Source: a virus
Virus genome (UHGV): UHGV-0125333
Reading direction: 5' to 3' (one strand)
DNA: 24,351 nt
Shown here: positions 6,917 through 21,561 of the stretch, one piece after another
Numbering within the stretch: position 1 is the first letter of the stretch
How the letters are laid out: each line of letters opens with the position of its first letter
Notes under the pieces: generated by a model
The model's input: only the letters and a program-made list of their open reading frames with translations
What the model was told of the DNA's origin: nothing
Databases searched by the model: none
Position numbers and translations under genes: made by a program

Positions 6917-7049
6917 TTTTTGGGACTCCTGGCTGATTAAGTATGTCGATAAGGCGTTTCCATCCGTCACGTAATTTACGGGTGATTCGTTCAAGTAAAG
7001 ATTCGGAAGGGCAGCCAGCAACAGGCCACCCTGCAATGGCATATTGCAT
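6885..7049 (-). CDS. cIII: CIII, FtsH inhibitor that stabilises CII
   Basis: Hand translation of the minus strand from the ATG at 7049 gives [54 protein letters not shown] then stop. It is below the 60-aa cutoff of the ORF track. Confidence 0.85.
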   Translation of the reverse strand: MQYAIAGWPVAGCPSESLLERITRKLRDGWKRLIDILNQPGVPKNGSNTYGYPD

Positions 7050-7121
7050 GGTGTGCTCCTTATTTATACATAACGAAAAACGCCTCGAGTGAAGCGTTAT
7101 TGGTATGCGGTAACGCCGCGC

Positions 7122-15090: not shown

Positions 15091-15227
15091 TGTTTGAGTT
15101 TAATATGGCAGAACTTCTTCGCCACCGCTGGGGGCGTCTGCGCTTATATCGTTTCCCCGGTTCTGTTTTGACCGATTACCGAATACTGAAGAATTACGCC
15201 AAAACACTGACAGGAGCAGGAGTATGA
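15087..15227 (+). CDS. ylcG: YlcG-like 46-aa protein
   Basis: Hand translation gives [46 protein letters not shown] then stop, overlapping the rusA stop; matches DLP12 YlcG as recalled. Confidence 0.7.
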
Positions 15228-15312
15228 AGTCAGAGATAACAATCAACTAATACTGTTTTGTTGATTTTTGCTTGTAATTGGCGTTCTGGTCTGAGTTTTG
15301 TGGAGTAAGTTG

Positions 15313-15690
15313 ATGCGTGATATTCAGATGGTTCTTGAGCGTTGGGGAGCGTGGGCGGCTAATAATCATGAAGATGTGACCTGGTCGTCCATTGCCGCCG
15401 GTTTTAAGGGATTAATTCCTTCAAAAGTAAAATCTCGCCCACAATGTTGTGACGATGACGCGATGATCATTTGCGGGTGCATGGCCCGTCTGAAAAAGAA
15501 CAACAGCGATTTGCATGATTTATTGGTGGACTATTATGTCGGCGGCATGACTTTTATGGCGCTTGCACGTAAGCATGGGCGATCTGATTGTTGGGTTGGC
15601 AGGATGCTTCAGAAAGCTGAGGGCGTAGTGGAGGGTATGCTGATGGTGTTGGATCTCCGATTGGAGATGGATGCTGATTGTTCGAAATAA
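15313..15690 (+). CDS. Late-gene antiterminator Q, phage-82/QuuD type
   Basis: From the ATG at 15313: [62 protein letters not shown]..., matching the QuuD/Q82 family as recalled. Confidence 0.85.
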
Positions 15691-15694
15691 TTAA

Positions 15695-15789
15695 AGGAAA
15701 AGTTGCTGTCTGATTGTCATTAGTCTAACATTTTAAATGTTGGAATCGCAACGTAGTTATTATCATATAACAGCTTGTTTCCTGATTTA
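15695..15789 (+). promoter_or_regulatory. Candidate late promoter pR' and qut site
   Basis: Placed only from position immediately downstream of Q and upstream of a terminator; no promoter elements confidently identified. Confidence 0.35.
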
Positions 15790-15817
15790 GCCAGCCTCCC
15801 CAAAGGCTGGTCTTTTT
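15790..15817 (+). terminator. tR'-like intrinsic terminator downstream of Q
   Basis: GCCAGCC-TCCCCAAA-GGCTGG hairpin followed by TCTTTTTCT on the plus strand. Confidence 0.55.
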
Positions 15818-15845
15818 CTAATAAGTATTATTTCGGGTAGGGATT

Positions 15846-16370
15846 TTATTGTTTAACCCATAATAATTCATTGACATTGAATCCCAACTTTTGAGCGGTT
15901 CGCACATAGTCTGCTTTTACTTTATCTGGAATAGTTGGGGTCCTTGCCAGAATCCATAGGTATTCTCTGTTCGGACCACTGACAAGAGCATACTTATACT
16001 CATCATCCAGTTTGATTACATTATAGCCACCATAGAAGGGGCCAAAAAACGAAACCTTCAATGCTGCAGTTTTAGTATCTCCAGTAAAGTATGCTTTACC
16101 TTCGCTCTCGCTCCATTTATTTTTCGTTGGATCGTATCCACGGTTAAGTACACGAATCCCTCCGTCGTTCCGTTTTCCATAAGTAGCGCTGACCTGTTCC
16201 AGACCACGTTCGAACCGGTTCTCGAGGCGAGCTATTTCATACCATTTTCCGAGGTAGCGGTTGGCGTCAAAATTTGTAATCGGCTGCACACCTTTAGGTG
16301 GTGTCGGGGCCTTACATGCTATAAGAGTGAAAGAGAGTGCAATGCCAGTCAACACAGGCCATAACTTCAT
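15846..16370 (-). CDS. Bacterial lipocalin (Blc-like) outer-membrane lipoprotein
   Basis: 174-aa ORF with signal peptide and lipobox (FTLIAC) and lipocalin motifs (NFDANRYLGKWYEIARLENRFERG ... KVSFFGPFYGGYNVI) paralleling E. coli Blc; a paralogue, not blc itself. Confidence 0.85.
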   Translation of the reverse strand: MKLWPVLTGIALSFTLIACKAPTPPKGVQPITNFDANRYLGKWYEIARLENRFERGLEQVSATYGKRNDGGIRVLNRGYDPTKNKWSESEGKAYFTGDTKTAALKVSFFGPFYGGYNVIKLDDEYKYALVSGPNREYLWILARTPTIPDKVKADYVRTAQKLGFNVNELLWVKQ

Positions 16371-16562
16371 AATAAATCCTGTACTTTTGATAGTTGAGAG
16401 TAAGTATGAAAGATAGATGATTACGACCGATCACTTAAAGAACTTTCATACTATATTAGGAATAGTCCATAACAGAAAAATTGTCAGTGATGACGCCAGA
16501 AAGGCAATTTATTCCGTGCACTACACAGTTTATGTGTTAATGAATTAGTCAAGGGGGAGAAT

Positions 16563-17522
16563 ATGATAAAAAAACCTGTGATTGGAATCAGCGGTTGTTT
16601 GGCCGGTTCTGCTGTTCGTTTTGATGGTGGTCACAAAAGAGCTGACTTTTTAATGGACAAATTAGTGGAATGGGTAACATTCAGACCAGTATGTCCGGAA
16701 ATGGCTATAGGGCTGCCAGTTCCGCGTCCTGCTCTACGTCTTGTGCGCTCGATGCAAGGAAATATACGGATGTGTTTCAGCCACGACCAGAATGAGGATG
16801 TGACAGAGAGAATGACAGAGTTTAGTCGTTCTTATATGGACAAATTAAAGGATGTATCGGGGTTTGTGGTTTGTGCTAAATCTCCCAGCTGTGGCATGGA
16901 GCGCGTGCGTGTCTATGATGAAAATGGTAATCGAGGTCGTAAAGATGGAGTGGGACTATTTACGAGCACTTTGATGGAAAAGTTTTCCTGGCTACCGGTT
17001 GAAGAGGATGGGCGATTACATGATCCAGTGCTTCGTGAGAATTTTGTTGAAAGAGTTTTTGCTTTGCATGAGCTCAATCACCTTTACAAGGAGAAATTAT
17101 CAAGAAGAGAGTTATTAGCTTTTCATAGTCGTTATAAGCTTCAGTTGTTGGCGCATAGTCAGGCAGGCTATAAAGATATGGGACCATTTGTGGCTGCAAT
17201 ACACGAGTGGGCGGACCTTGAATCATACTTTGAGGTGTATCGTGATAAGCTGATGGCGATTCTCAGAAAACCTGCATCACGTAAAAATCACACGAATGTG
17301 TTGATGCATATACAGGGGTATTTTAGTAACTACTTAAGTACACGCCAGCGTAAAGAGTTGAGCGAGGTTATACTTAACTATCGTTCTGGCACATTACCTC
17401 TTCTTGCGCCGTTGACTCTGCTGAAGCATTATCTGGGTGAGTATCCTAATGATTACTTGCTTACACAGAATTACTTCGATCCCTATCCGGACGAACTGGC
17501 TCTAAGACTGACGGTAAATTAA
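16563..17522 (+). CDS. DUF523-DUF1722 fusion protein (TudS-like Cys-rich N-terminal domain plus YbgA-like C-terminal domain)
   Basis: 319-aa ORF with strong RBS (AAGGGGGAGAAT). N-terminus MIKKPVIGISGCLAGSAVRFDGGHKR with further conserved Cys (PVCPEM, SPSCGMERV) as in the DUF523 family. Assigned from recall. Confidence 0.75.
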   Translation: MIKKPVIGISGCLAGSAVRFDGGHKRADFLMDKLVEWVTFRPVCPEMAIGLPVPRPALRLVRSMQGNIRMCFSHDQNEDVTERMTEFSRSYMDKLKDVSGFVVCAKSPSCGMERVRVYDENGNRGRKDGVGLFTSTLMEKFSWLPVEEDGRLHDPVLRENFVERVFALHELNHLYKEKLSRRELLAFHSRYKLQLLAHSQAGYKDMGPFVAAIHEWADLESYFEVYRDKLMAILRKPASRKNHTNVLMHIQGYFSNYLSTRQRKELSEVILNYRSGTLPLLAPLTLLKHYLGEYPNDYLLTQNYFDPYPDELALRLTVN

Positions 17523-17873
17523 TTGTATGCGATATCATCCAAAAGGATGAGTTCCTGCATGCAGGATATTTACAATCGTAAAAACTACACTATGATACCC
17601 AGAGTGTCAGTTTGTATAAAAACTCTGTTTACTCTGAAGAAACAATTGAGATGCAACTTAAAGTTGGTAAACATGCCAGTCAAAATATATAATATTATGA
17701 TTCCACGCAGCTATATATAATATAACAGATTGGTTTAATAATTTGTCTTTGTGAGTTAAATACATAATTTTATACTTGTGATGCAATGAAATTTTCCTTA
17801 TTGTTGAACTGGCGAATATTGATTTTCCACCTATACTTACCTGGTGTAACCCCAATGATATCAGGTGGATAAT

Positions 17874-18605
17874 ATGCCATACATATGTTCTATCATTTTG
17901 GTGTTGAACTCGTTTGATGTCCGAATTGGTAAAGAAGATATTTTGTTTAAAAAAGGAAGTGCTGTTCTCATTGATTACAATTTAAAAGATTTTTTTTCAT
18001 CAAATATAGATCATGTAATGATCGTAGATGTTGAAGAGAAAACAGTTAATGATTTCTTTAAAAGCAACACACTCTCACCTTTTTCTGTAAGAAGGTTTTA
18101 TCCGGCATACTTGATGGTGGAATGTGAAGATTTTTCATTGTTAAAGAACTTGATTGCATGCTTGAATTGTGATGGCAGAACTGTGGATTTTGTTAGAAAT
18201 CAAATATCACTTGCATGTCTTGCTATCTTATCTTCAGAGAAAATAGTGCAAAGTTTTTTATTTGGATGTCTTAATAGTTTAGGAAGTAAAGTTAAGGCTA
18301 TTATTCACACGGATATATCTGCAGCATGGAGACTTTGTGATATATCTTCAAGACTGTATCTGAGTGAAAGTCTGTTAAAAAGAAAATTAAAGCACGAAGG
18401 CTTATCATTTAGTAAGTTAATTCTTGAAGAGCGAATGGTGATGGCGGAAAGGTTATTAAGCTACAATTTATATTCTGTTGGAAAAGTTGCTGAGATATGC
18501 GGTTATGAAAACACGTCATATTTTGTAAGTGTTTTCAGAAGGTATTTTGGTGTTCCTCCCCATCAATATTCATCAAGATTTTTTTTAGAAAAAGACATGA
18601 TGTAA
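17874..18605 (+). CDS. AraC/XylS-family transcriptional regulator (AppY/EnvY-like)
   Basis: ATG at 17874 (track ORF starts at GTG 17865). C-terminal AraC-type HTH (VGKVAEICGYENTSYFVSVFRRYFGVPPHQY); N-terminus MPYICSIILVLNSF parallels AppY MDYVCSVVFICQSF. AT-rich gene with a long AT-rich upstream region. Confidence 0.85.
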   Translation: MPYICSIILVLNSFDVRIGKEDILFKKGSAVLIDYNLKDFFSSNIDHVMIVDVEEKTVNDFFKSNTLSPFSVRRFYPAYLMVECEDFSLLKNLIACLNCDGRTVDFVRNQISLACLAILSSEKIVQSFLFGCLNSLGSKVKAIIHTDISAAWRLCDISSRLYLSESLLKRKLKHEGLSFSKLILEERMVMAERLLSYNLYSVGKVAEICGYENTSYFVSVFRRYFGVPPHQYSSRFFLEKDMM

Positions 18606-18792
18606 CGTGATGCGTTTTAATGATTTTGTAATTTTCGTATTTGATAATTGTATGATGCTTTCAGCTACGCCAGAATAATCGCGGCGTTTTTCTTTTTGAA
18701 TAGATGTTCAAGCCTTACGCTAATGTAACTTCTATACCTTTCCTCTTCGTTCCGAACCGTGTACACCATCCGTTATTTGCGGAGGTGAGGCT

Positions 18793-19008
18793 ATGAAATC
18801 CATGGATAAGTTAACAACGGGTGTCGCCTATGGCACCTCAGCAGGTAGTGCCGGTTACTGGTTTTTACAGCTGCTCGATAAAGTCACGCCCTCACAGTGG
18901 GCAGCAATAGGTGTGCTGGGTAGCCTGGTATTTGGCCTGCTGACGTACCTGACAAACCTTTATTTCAAGATTAAAGAAGATAAGCGCAAGGCTGCGAGAG
19001 GTGAATAA
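18793..19008 (+). CDS. Class II holin (pinholin), phage-21 S / EssD type, with dual-start motif
   Basis: 71-aa [74 protein letters not shown]. Met1 and Met4 give antiholin/holin starts; strong RBS GGAGGTGAGG. Confidence 0.9.
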
Positions 19009-19505
19009 TGCCTCCATCATTACGAAAAGCCGTTGCTGCTGCTATTGGTGGCGGAGCAATTGCTATAGCATCAGTGTTAATCACTGGCCCAAGTGGTAAC
19101 GATGGTCTGGAAGGTGTCAGCTACATACCATACAAAGATATCGTTGGCGTATGGACTGTATGTCACGGGCATACAGGAAAAGACATCATTCCCGGTAAAA
19201 CGTATACCGAAGCAGAATGCAAAGCCCTCCTGAATAAAGACCTTGCCACGGTAGCCAGACAAATTAACCCGTACATCAAAGTCGATATACCGGAAACAAC
19301 GCGCGGCGCTCTTTACTCGTTCGTCTATAACGTGGGCGCAGGCAATTTCAGAACATCTACTCTTCTTCGCAAAATAAACCAGGGCGATATCAAGGGCGCA
19401 TGTGACCAGCTACGTCGCTGGGCATACGCTGGCGGTAAGCAATGGAAAGGCCTGATGACTCGTCGTGAGATTGAGCGTGAGGTCTGTTTGTGGGGGCAAC
19501 AATGA
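19008..19505 (+). CDS. SAR endolysin (lysozyme, phage-21 R type)
   Basis: 165-aa ORF with an N-terminal Gly/Ala-rich signal-anchor-release segment ([20 protein letters not shown]) and a lysozyme-like body; start overlaps the holin stop (TAATG). Confidence 0.9.
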
Positions 19506-19966: not shown

Positions 19967-20103
19967 AATCTTAACTACAATATGATTCATTTTGATGATT
20001 GTTTCATAAGGAACAGTGAAGTAAGATCTAAGAGGAGTTAAATTTTATACAGTATAATCATAATATTGCAGCAAGGTGGTTATAATTGAAAGAATATTTA
20101 GAT

Positions 20104-21561
20104 ATGAATACATCTCATGTAAGAGTTGTTACTCATATGTGTGGGTTCCTGGTTTGGCTCTATAGTCTTTCAATGTTGCCACCAATGGTTGTAGCATTGT
20201 TTTATAAAGAAAAAAGCCTGTTCGTTTTCTTTATAACTTTCGTTATATTTTTTTGCATTGGTGGCGGAGCGTGGTATACAACTAAGAAATCTGGCATTCA
20301 ATTACGTACCCGTGATGGGTTTATTATAATTGTAATGTTTTGGATTTTGTTTTCTGTTATTAGTGCATTCCCTTTATGGATTGACTCAGAACTTAATTTA
20401 ACGTTCATTGATGCTCTGTTTGAAGGGGTTTCTGGAATAACAACAACAGGAGCAACTGTAATTGATGATGTTAGTTCATTACCTCGGGCATATTTGTACT
20501 ATCGGTCACAGTTAAATTTTATAGGTGGTTTAGGAGTTATTGTTCTGGCGGTTGCTGTATTGCCATTATTGGGTATTGGTGGTGCAAAGCTTTATCAGTC
20601 AGAAATGCCGGGGCCATTTAAGGATGACAAACTCACTCCCCGCCTGGCCGATACGTCACGGACACTGTGGATAACTTATTCTTTATTAGGTATTGCTTGT
20701 ATTGTCTGTTATAGACTTGCAGGAATGCCTTTGTTTGATGCTATTTGTCACGGGATTTCCACAGTTTCGCTTGGTGGTTTCTCAACTCATAGCGAGAGTA
20801 TCGGATATTTTAATAACTATTTGGTTGAGCTGGTGGCTGGTTCTTTTTCCCTGCTATCGGCTTTCAACTTCACTCTTTGGTATATTGTTATTAGCAGGAA
20901 AACGATAAAACCTTTAATCAGAGATATTGAACTTCGTTTCTTTCTGTTAATAGCCTTAGGGGTGATCATTGTTACCTCTTTCCAGGTCTGGCATATAGGT
21001 ATGTATGACTTGCATGGAAGTTTTATTCATTCGTTTTTTCTTGCCAGCTCCATGCTCACTGATAATGGTTTAGCTACGCAGGATTATGCAAGTTGGCCCA
21101 CGCACACGATAGTGTTTTTGCTGTTGTCAAGTTTCTTTGGGGGATGTATAGGTTCAACTTGTGGTGGAATTAAGTCACTTCGATTTCTTATACTTTTCAA
21201 ACAAAGCAAACACGAGATAAATCAGCTTTCTCATCCCAGAGCGTTGTTGAGTGTAAATGTAGGAGGGAAGATAGTTACAGATCGTGTAATGAGGTCTGTA
21301 TGGAGTTTCTTTTTTCTTTATACTCTCTTCACGGTGTTTTTTATACTGGTGTTAAATGGTATGGGATATGATTTTCTTACATCATTTGCAACAGTGGCTG
21401 CATGTATTAATAATATGGGATTAGGTTTTGGGGCTACTGCATCGTCATTCGGAGTGCTTAATGACATTGCAAAATGTTTAATGTGCATAGCTATGATTCT
21501 TGGTCGCCTTGAAATTTATCCTGTTATTATATTGTTTTCAGGTTTTTTTTGGCGCTCCTAA
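20104..21561 (+). CDS. trkG: TrkG/TrkH-family K+ uptake membrane protein
   Basis: 485 aa from the ATG at 20104 (MNTSHVRVVTHMCGFLVWLYSLSMLPP...), multi-pass membrane protein matching Rac-prophage TrkG as recalled; AT-rich coding sequence. Confidence 0.88.
   Translation: MNTSHVRVVTHMCGFLVWLYSLSMLPPMVVALFYKEKSLFVFFITFVIFFCIGGGAWYTTKKSGIQLRTRDGFIIIVMFWILFSVISAFPLWIDSELNLTFIDALFEGVSGITTTGATVIDDVSSLPRAYLYYRSQLNFIGGLGVIVLAVAVLPLLGIGGAKLYQSEMPGPFKDDKLTPRLADTSRTLWITYSLLGIACIVCYRLAGMPLFDAICHGISTVSLGGFSTHSESIGYFNNYLVELVAGSFSLLSAFNFTLWYIVISRKTIKPLIRDIELRFFLLIALGVIIVTSFQVWHIGMYDLHGSFIHSFFLASSMLTDNGLATQDYASWPTHTIVFLLLSSFFGGCIGSTCGGIKSLRFLILFKQSKHEINQLSHPRALLSVNVGGKIVTDRVMRSVWSFFFLYTLFTVFFILVLNGMGYDFLTSFATVAACINNMGLGFGATASSFGVLNDIAKCLMCIAMILGRLEIYPVIILFSGFFWRS

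Follow-up and report, generated by a model that had tools for sequence, protein, structure and literature searches.

PatE, encoded by z0321 of enterohaemorrhagic Escherichia coli (EHEC) O157:H7 in prophage CP-933H (Sp1 in strain Sakai), is an AraC-like regulator of about 245 residues, encoded by a prophage, that activates gadE, gadBC and hdeAB via the hdeA region from -132 to -45 (PMC10877973). PsrB binds the same hdeA region and also the gadE promoter, and PsrA and PsrB thereby repress the type III secretion system of the enterocyte effacement locus (LEE) (PMC10877973). In K-12, AppY from the DLP12 prophage binds and directly activates gadE and gadY, its own expression depending on H-NS, RpoS and other factors, and GadW, GadX and YdeO modulate gadE (PMC10057817). 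Each characterised member of this subfamily (GadW, YdeO, AppY, PatE and PsrA/PsrB), together with the more distant GadX, acts on gadE and/or hdeA. Here we describe a relative of these proteins in UHGV virus genome UHGV-0125333, a stretch of 24,351 nucleotides that we call the window. The gene (17874-18605, + strand) encodes an AraC/XylS-family regulator of 243 amino acids and is preceded by 351 bp of intergenic DNA (17523-17873). The interval 17523-18605 consists of this intergenic DNA and the gene, because the upstream gene (16563-17522) has its stop codon directly before 17523.

The regulator very probably belongs to the prophage-borne PatE/Psr branch of the GadW/YdeO/AppY subfamily within AraC/XylS, a placement in which we have much more confidence than in any role discussed below. 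With 54.9 bits for HTH_18 (cut-off 33.6) and 44.1 bits for HTH_AraC (cut-off 26.6), the protein scores above both Pfam thresholds, and lambdoid prophage genes surround the locus, in agreement with a sequence-only reading of this DNA that had proposed an AraC-family regulator carried by a prophage. The best NCBIfam model is YdeO (NF007407, an equivalog model), which covers residues 1-236 with 127.3 bits; because this is below the cut-off of 348 bits, the protein is a relative of YdeO and not a YdeO equivalog. Among K-12 proteins, the top BLASTP match was GadW (34% identity over 234 residues, E = 4e-46), alongside AppY (32%, E = 3e-41) and YdeO (32%, E = 3e-38). All three matches are full length, with alignments spanning residues 1 to ~233. 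Similarity to GadX and AdiY was confined to the DNA-binding domain, EnvY (29% identity) showed significant similarity in that domain alone, and YbcM gave a marginal match (22% over 125 residues). The closest match to a characterised protein was Sakai ECs_0287, the presumed PatE, at 54% identity over 235 residues, and the PsrB candidate, EDL933_RS10010, aligned over its full length at 40%. The alignment with GadW, YdeO, AppY, the presumed PatE and the PsrB candidate is collinear from end to end, and the gene is intact, with neither frameshift nor truncation on this closer alignment and with all family-invariant residues present. In an exhaustive HMMER scan of 1.84 billion representatives, just 10 clusters (50% identity) reached E <= 1e-30, so the full-length subfamily is small.

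Identity to these relatives is unevenly distributed along the protein. In the DNA-binding domain (residues 135-235), the window protein is 72% identical to the presumed PatE, 55% to the PsrB candidate, 41-47% to GadW, YdeO and AppY, and 41-42% to GadX, AdiY and EnvY. In the N-terminal domain (residues 1-134), the corresponding values are 40%, 27%, 20-24% and ~13%, the last of these being a level at which homology is undetectable. A neighbour-joining tree with 300 bootstraps recovered the window clade (the 82-85% alleles and a 64% relative) in 284 of the 300 replicates and its sister relationship to the PatE clade in 283. AppY grouped with three other homologues (P0113, P0114 and P0165), and EnvY and AdiY formed the outgroup.

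The earlier description of the gene as "AppY/EnvY-like" is therefore acceptable in its first half, broadly taken, and fails in its second. AppY is a full-length though distant member of the same subfamily; like the window protein, it is prophage-borne, has an MxxxCS(V/I)I N-terminus and keeps the conserved recognition helices. AppY is not an ortholog: the two proteins share 32% of their residues overall (23% in the N-terminal and 41% in the DNA-binding domain) and fall in separate groups of the tree, and appY is located beside ompT, at the far right end of DLP12, not between the late genes Q and S, where the window gene is found. With EnvY and AdiY, the likeness is that of an AraC-type DNA-binding domain (41-42% identity). 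The label "EnvY-like" does not hold because the N-terminal domain is ~13% identical (12.7-13.4% across the EnvY/AdiY group, with largely C-terminal alignments) and similarity is undetectable there. GadW and YdeO differ from the window regulator in being encoded by chromosomal genes rather than by a prophage. The accurate family label is "PatE-like", denoting an uncharacterised relative of a known regulator family. Public names are more generic (PHROG 1450, "unknown function"; RefSeq, "helix-turn-helix domain-containing protein"), and in a literature search the accession numbers were cited in no paper. One study mentions "six additional Psr homologs" (PMC10877973), and the window allele may already be among them.

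The AlphaFold2 model of the regulator (predicted local distance difference test score, pLDDT, of 87.4) has a beta-rich N-terminal domain (codons 1-134, 17874-18275, +), with a presumed role in sensing or dimerisation, followed by a helical domain with two helix-turn-helix motifs (codons 135-235, 18276-18578, +) that corresponds to the Pfam HTH_18 and HTH_AraC matches. When the full-length model was searched with Foldseek, the best matches were three virulence regulators whose structures have been solved, Rns, CsvR and ToxT (E-values 2.5e-10 to 1e-6, probability 1.0). Sequence matches to these three proteins range from 6e-18 to 1e-9. They differ from the window protein in having 16-21% identity to it and template-modelling scores (TM-scores) of ~0.4, the latter because the domains are oriented differently. 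The DNA-binding domain of the model superposes on that of GadX (3mkl) with a root-mean-square deviation of 1.3-1.6 Å at 40% identity. The comparison with AppY, EnvY, GadX and Rns that the sequence-only reading had suggested thus gave a full-length relative in AppY, matches restricted to the DNA-binding domain in EnvY and GadX, and a structural match in Rns, and the nearest protein was the presumed PatE, which had not been on that list. K169 of the regulator occupies the position of K170 in AppY, where the lysine is conserved; the AppY substitution K170E abolishes DNA binding (PMC10057817).

What would such a protein do in a lysogen? That members of this family rewire host regulons, as had been pointed out for AppY, has been reported both for AppY (PMC10057817) and for PatE and PsrB (PMC10877973). 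By analogy with them, the window regulator probably activates AT-rich, H-NS-repressed host promoters of the gadE/hdeA acid-resistance circuit. We judged this role the likeliest because the DNA-binding domain is so close to that of the presumed PatE and because the first recognition helix is nearly identical in the two proteins (SESLLKRKLKHEG in the window protein, SESLLKRKLKEEG in the presumed PatE). In a lysogen, the regulator would be held at a low level, probably by H-NS acting on DNA of 32% GC (guanine plus cytosine). Under stress or in stationary phase, transcription could start at a proximal promoter with a -10 element TATACT and a weak -35, and the protein would then bind AT-rich promoters that belong to the host's glutamate-dependent circuit of acid resistance, those of gadE and hdeAB, as PatE, PsrB and AppY do. 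Binding there would raise acid tolerance.

The two closest reference systems resemble the window locus in different ways. The -10 footprint TATACT is found upstream of both the window gene and the presumed PatE gene. The presumed PatE gene lies in a degraded prophage beside pin and tail-fibre remnants, unlike the window gene between Q and S, and activation of gadE, gadBC and hdeAB has been demonstrated experimentally for PatE (PMC10877973), whereas for the window protein it is predicted. PatE ancestors were probably once in the Q-S interval, since a homologue 84% identical to the presumed PatE (P0015) sits there. The PsrB candidate is, like the window gene, an AraC-like gene of a lambdoid prophage, with an antiterminator-like gene on one side and the lysis genes on the other; more exactly, it stands between the antiterminator-like gene and tRNA, TerB, esterase and holin genes. 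The Psr genes differ in being linked to effector loci and Pch regulators and in repressing LEE via GadE and YhiF (PMC10877973). No effector genes were noticed in the window prophage.

Several observations weigh against the acid-resistance role. First, the two reference proteins are named from their prophage location: ECs_0287 is taken as PatE because Sp1 (which corresponds to CP-933H, O-island 8) contains no other AraC-like gene, and EDL933_RS10010 (OI-57) is taken as PsrB on similar grounds. Second, the branch joining the PsrB clade was weak (70 of 300 bootstraps). Third, although reviews place psrA (z1789) in OI-50/CP-933N, tblastn found no AraC homologue in CP-933N of EDL933 or in Sakai Sp6 as currently assembled. 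Fourth, the N-terminal domain evolves faster than the rest of the protein and shares just 40% of its residues with that of the presumed PatE, so the signal that it takes in, and perhaps its partners too, may not be those of PatE. Fifth, promoter-like matches in the region are at chance level (13 against 11.1 expected). Finally, the H-NS high-affinity motif TCGATAAATT, with up to two mismatches, occurred 35 times in the window against 33 expected and 0 times within 17523-18605. As to the psrA locus, its assignment may reflect misassembly among similar lambdoid prophages (L010, L009). One of the homologues we collected, P0160, is a protein 88% identical to the PsrB candidate.

The composition of the locus is unusual for this prophage. 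The intergenic DNA has a GC content of 0.316 and the gene one of 0.318, compared with 0.454 over the whole window and 0.48-0.50 in Q and in S-R-Rz. The AT-richest 1083-bp stretch of the window begins at 17566, and 114 of the 23,268 stretches of that size are lower in GC than 17523-18605. Both the strong AT-richness of the gene and the long AT-rich non-coding region ahead of it, put at ~340 bp by the sequence-only reading and 351 bp by our count, were thus borne out. The upstream region (17523-17873) behaves as non-coding by comparison of its alleles, between which there are indels whose lengths are not divisible by three and would break a reading frame; Rfam has no family at the 17523-18605 locus, and a search of 17523-17873 against the phage collection matched only the same cassette. 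Silencing of the regulator gene by H-NS is plausible, given this base composition and the analogy with appY.

The open reading frame of the regulator (+) can begin at GTG 17865, the mechanical start, or at ATG 17874, and runs to 18605. ATG 17874 is almost certainly the start codon, because a Shine-Dalgarno sequence AGGTGG (17863-17868, +), which overlaps GTG 17865, lies 5 nt upstream and is kept in most relatives, five of the six aligned, and because RefSeq annotates the same 243-residue product. The exceptions among the relatives are the presumed PatE gene, which has GGGGGG, and the PsrB candidate, which has none.

Two promoter-like sites lie further upstream on the same strand. The proximal one (17809-17837) consists of a weak -35, CTGGCG (17809-17814), a 17-nt spacer and the -10 TATACT (17832-17837). 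In an alignment of the 80 nt before the start codon in seven family members, the -10 is conserved, with TATAAT as its form in the PsrB candidate. The six closer relatives (54-85% protein identity) also have a -35 that contains TGG, at a spacing of 17-18 nt, whereas the -35 is unrecognisable in the PsrB candidate (40%). The distal site (17569-17596; TTTACA, 16 nt, TATGAT) matches the sigma-70 consensus at 10 of 12 positions. It lies in an island kept between the window and the divergent Lambda_2E9 alleles, is conserved among cassette alleles only, and is absent from the single-gene homologues. Since consensus matches are not above chance in this region, the argument for a promoter is one from conservation. 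A C right before TATACT combined with a poor -35 resembles sigma-S-dependent promoters. This appearance of the proximal site would fit the stationary-phase expression reported for patE (PMC10877973).

Other signals upstream of the gene led nowhere or stand apart. The AppY motif ATGSCWGM occurred 17 times in the window against 8.3 expected, nearly always in coding sequence and never in the upstream region, which makes it uninformative, and a 7/8 match to it at 17673-17680 was set aside when another allele proved to lack it. A 20-nt direct repeat, 85% identical between its two copies, is present upstream of a terminator-like hairpin (15761-15780) and upstream of the regulator gene (17716-17735). 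In strain AS19, the copies are similar over as much as 39 nt (82%). The repeat may be left over from modular recombination or from a duplicated region, or may be a chance match.

We next consider selection on the gene. Compared with the 83%-identical Lambda_2E9 allele (L012:4643-5374), the ratio of non-synonymous to synonymous substitution rates (dN/dS) is 0.26 for the whole gene; the N-terminal domain has 0.32 and the DNA-binding domain 0.15. Values for Q, blc, tudS-DUF1722, S and R are 0.05-0.11, which leaves the regulator the highest of the six genes compared. In prophages that are otherwise alike, this one slot is filled by alleles of 56-100% identity. Judged by these ratios, the regulator gene is under purifying selection, and its sensor-side half diversifies faster than anything around the gene. 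A loss of invariant glycines suspected in the 85% allele turned out to be peculiar to its read-assembly representative (P0006); the real AS19 gene keeps them.

The elevated dN/dS is one reason to ask whether the gene is a silent passenger, permanently silenced by H-NS or otherwise, or drifting towards loss, with no regulatory effect in its present hosts. The very low GC points the same way, as do insertions of IS1A, ISKpn26 and ISApl1-mcr-1 in or beside the gene in several genomes. We think this unlikely: dN/dS is well below 1 and lower yet in the domain that contacts DNA, no family-invariant residue has been lost, the promoter-like elements and Shine-Dalgarno sequence are conserved down to relatives of 54-56% identity, and full-length copies persist in 996 genomes. 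That figure comes from a search with the gene alone as query, in which 996 of 5,426 complete E. coli genomes (~18%) carried a full-length copy. An allele of at least 99% identity occurs in 584 complete E. coli genomes and an 80-90% allele in 433, at varying chromosomal positions and with at most three matching places per genome. If the regulator acts as PatE, PsrB and AppY do, a common mobile gene would be adjusting acid resistance, and hence stomach passage, in many commensal and drug-resistant lineages, and could account for strain-to-strain variation in GadE-dependent phenotypes. Such a role would add to a theme that is already known, not start another, and the gene is worth knowing about because it is common.

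The window represents a lambdoid prophage of E. coli that is integrated at ybhC/bioA, the attachment site of lambda, with ybhC adjoining int. Its genes run in the order int, xis, exo, bet, gam, kil, cIII, sieB, N, cI, cro, cII, O, P, ren, the nin region, Q, the locus described here, S, R, Rz, trkG, ynaK and terminase. The left neighbour, the late-gene antiterminator Q (15313-15690, +), matches PHROG 79 ("anti-termination protein Q-like", E = 2.8e-51) and is labelled "antiterminator Q family protein" in RefSeq; the right neighbour is a phage-21-type holin S (18793-19008, +; Pfam Phage_holin_2_1, E = 2e-35). The prophage resembles DLP12 as far as 15672, close to the 3' end of Q, and again from 18782, 11 nt before S, which defines 15673-18781 as a variable accessory ("moron") slot bordered by Q and S. 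DLP12 itself has nmpC at this place.

Just past the Q stop codon, and before a terminator, we read from the sequence a candidate late promoter pR' (TTGCTG, 17 nt, TAACAT; 15703-15731, +), a layout that we take to be that of lambdoid late regions; a consensus promoter scan did not pick up the site. The terminator is a tR'-like intrinsic one (15790-15818, +), an 8-bp stem followed by a T-run, and is the only terminator-like site in a scan of 15200-19100, with none between tR' and S. An equivalent hairpin and T-run stand between Q and the AraC homologue in the locus with the 56% allele (L016). Beyond the regulator gene, the minimum-free-energy and centroid folds of 18596-18795 both contain a weak hairpin, CGCCAGAAUAAUCGCGGCG followed by UUUUUCUUUUU (18668-18697, +), whose U-run makes it terminator-like; it falls under the threshold of the terminator scan and its function is uncertain. 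Of the properties expected of a moron, a slot confirmed against DLP12 and a composition unlike the flanks are both present, the terminator amounts to this weak hairpin and U-run, and the gene's own promoter is backed by conservation and not by enrichment in the scan.

The position between Q and S raises the possibility that the protein serves phage development, setting lysis timing, late transcription or host shutdown during lytic growth, and not the benefit of the lysogen. It is found in that interval in every intact context examined, next to three Q families, it is read in the direction of the late transcript, no terminator being found after tR', and it is kept in viable phages. Yet many lambdoid phages have an empty slot or unrelated cargo there (DLP12: nmpC), the characterised relatives target host promoters, and the gene is intact in the badly degraded prophage of strain AR_0085. 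A conserved promoter-like footprint of its own and a composition unlike the flanks are, in addition, hallmarks of a moron. We regard a role in phage development as unlikely.

The contents of the slot suggest another alternative. Between tR' and the regulator are a gene for a Blc-like outer-membrane lipocalin (15846-16370, - strand; Pfam Lipocalin_2, E = 7e-44; NCBIfam Blc, 316 bits, cut-off 267) and a gene for a fusion of TudS (DUF523, 2-thiouracil desulfidase family) with DUF1722 (16563-17522, +; Pfam PF04463 and PF08349, PHROG 3275 over the full length). As a local cassette regulator, the protein would mainly control these two divergent genes, as many AraC-family proteins do their neighbours, and an operator could lie in the 192 bp of DNA between their divergent starts (16371-16562). 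The three genes do travel together in the 99% and 83-85% alleles, in prophages and free phages alike: the viable phage IdasGreatGrand has the cassette at 99% nucleotide identity, the infant-gut Lambda_2E9/1H12 group has it at 89%, and the 82% allele retains it. However, the homologues at 64% (P0013) and 56% (P0015) stand alone between Q genes of other families (PF03589 and PF06323) and holin S, without blc and tudS-DUF1722, and the PsrB candidate likewise lacks both in its Q-S slot. No convincing repeat is common to the two intergenic regions, the short two-copy families found there being probably due to chance. Moreover, in AS19 the TudS-DUF1722 gene is split by IS3 (L022:6374-8594) and the regulator gene is intact. 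On this evidence, control of the cassette by its own regulator seems unlikely.

Matches in the phage collection comprised 22 records, all Escherichia phages. The regulator gene is 100% identical in the heavily degraded AR_0085 prophage, the prophage of the E. coli B strain REL606 at the lambda attachment site lacks it, and the B-lineage strain AS19 carries the 85% allele in a Qin-like prophage.

Because the regulator gene lies on the late-transcript strand, downstream of tR' and with no terminator before S, Q antitermination should also transcribe it at induction. The same Q-S slot is the position of stx in Shiga toxin (Stx) phages. More speculatively, and as a tentative proposal only, PatE-like regulators may form a dedicated class of late-operon cargo between Q/tR' and S with dual expression, from their own weak stress promoter in lysogens and strongly from the Q-driven transcript at induction. 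Induction in a subpopulation would then reprogramme the acid-stress/RpoS-linked regulon of the host, and the N-terminal domain, whose alleles in one slot are 40-87% identical, would tune each phage to its own signal.

Some features of the neighbourhood are of separate interest. The Blc-like gene is antisense to the late transcript and lies right after the tR'-like terminator. Among lambda phages of the infant gut, more than 50% were reported to have Blc as a moron (PMC6969025); the paper lists blc as such and does not mention the regulator gene. In the TudS-DUF1722 protein, the NCBIfam YbgA-type model PRK10167 (169 positions) covers just residues 160-315, the DUF1722 half. Directly after Rz (20086-21561, +, and downstream) are trkG, whose product is a potassium transporter of the TrkH family, and a ynaK-like ParB_N gene; the K-12 Rac prophage is known to have both, and they are found in the same arrangement beside the 56% allele in L016. 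Elsewhere in the prophage, a lambda cIII thermoregulator RNA element (7004-7062, - strand; Rfam RF01804, 88.5 bits) confirms a lambda-type early-left operon.

Insertion sequences have entered the region more than once. IS1A and ISKpn26 interrupt the stretch of the cassette equivalent to 17400-18800 in NZ_CP101005 (ET82) and NZ_CM169495 (EC05). In E. coli 2018-18.25PC (NZ_AP023286, L006:21659-27140), which was isolated from a pig in Viet Nam, the composite transposon for colistin resistance, ISApl1-mcr-1.1-pap2-ISApl1, splits the AraC-like gene.

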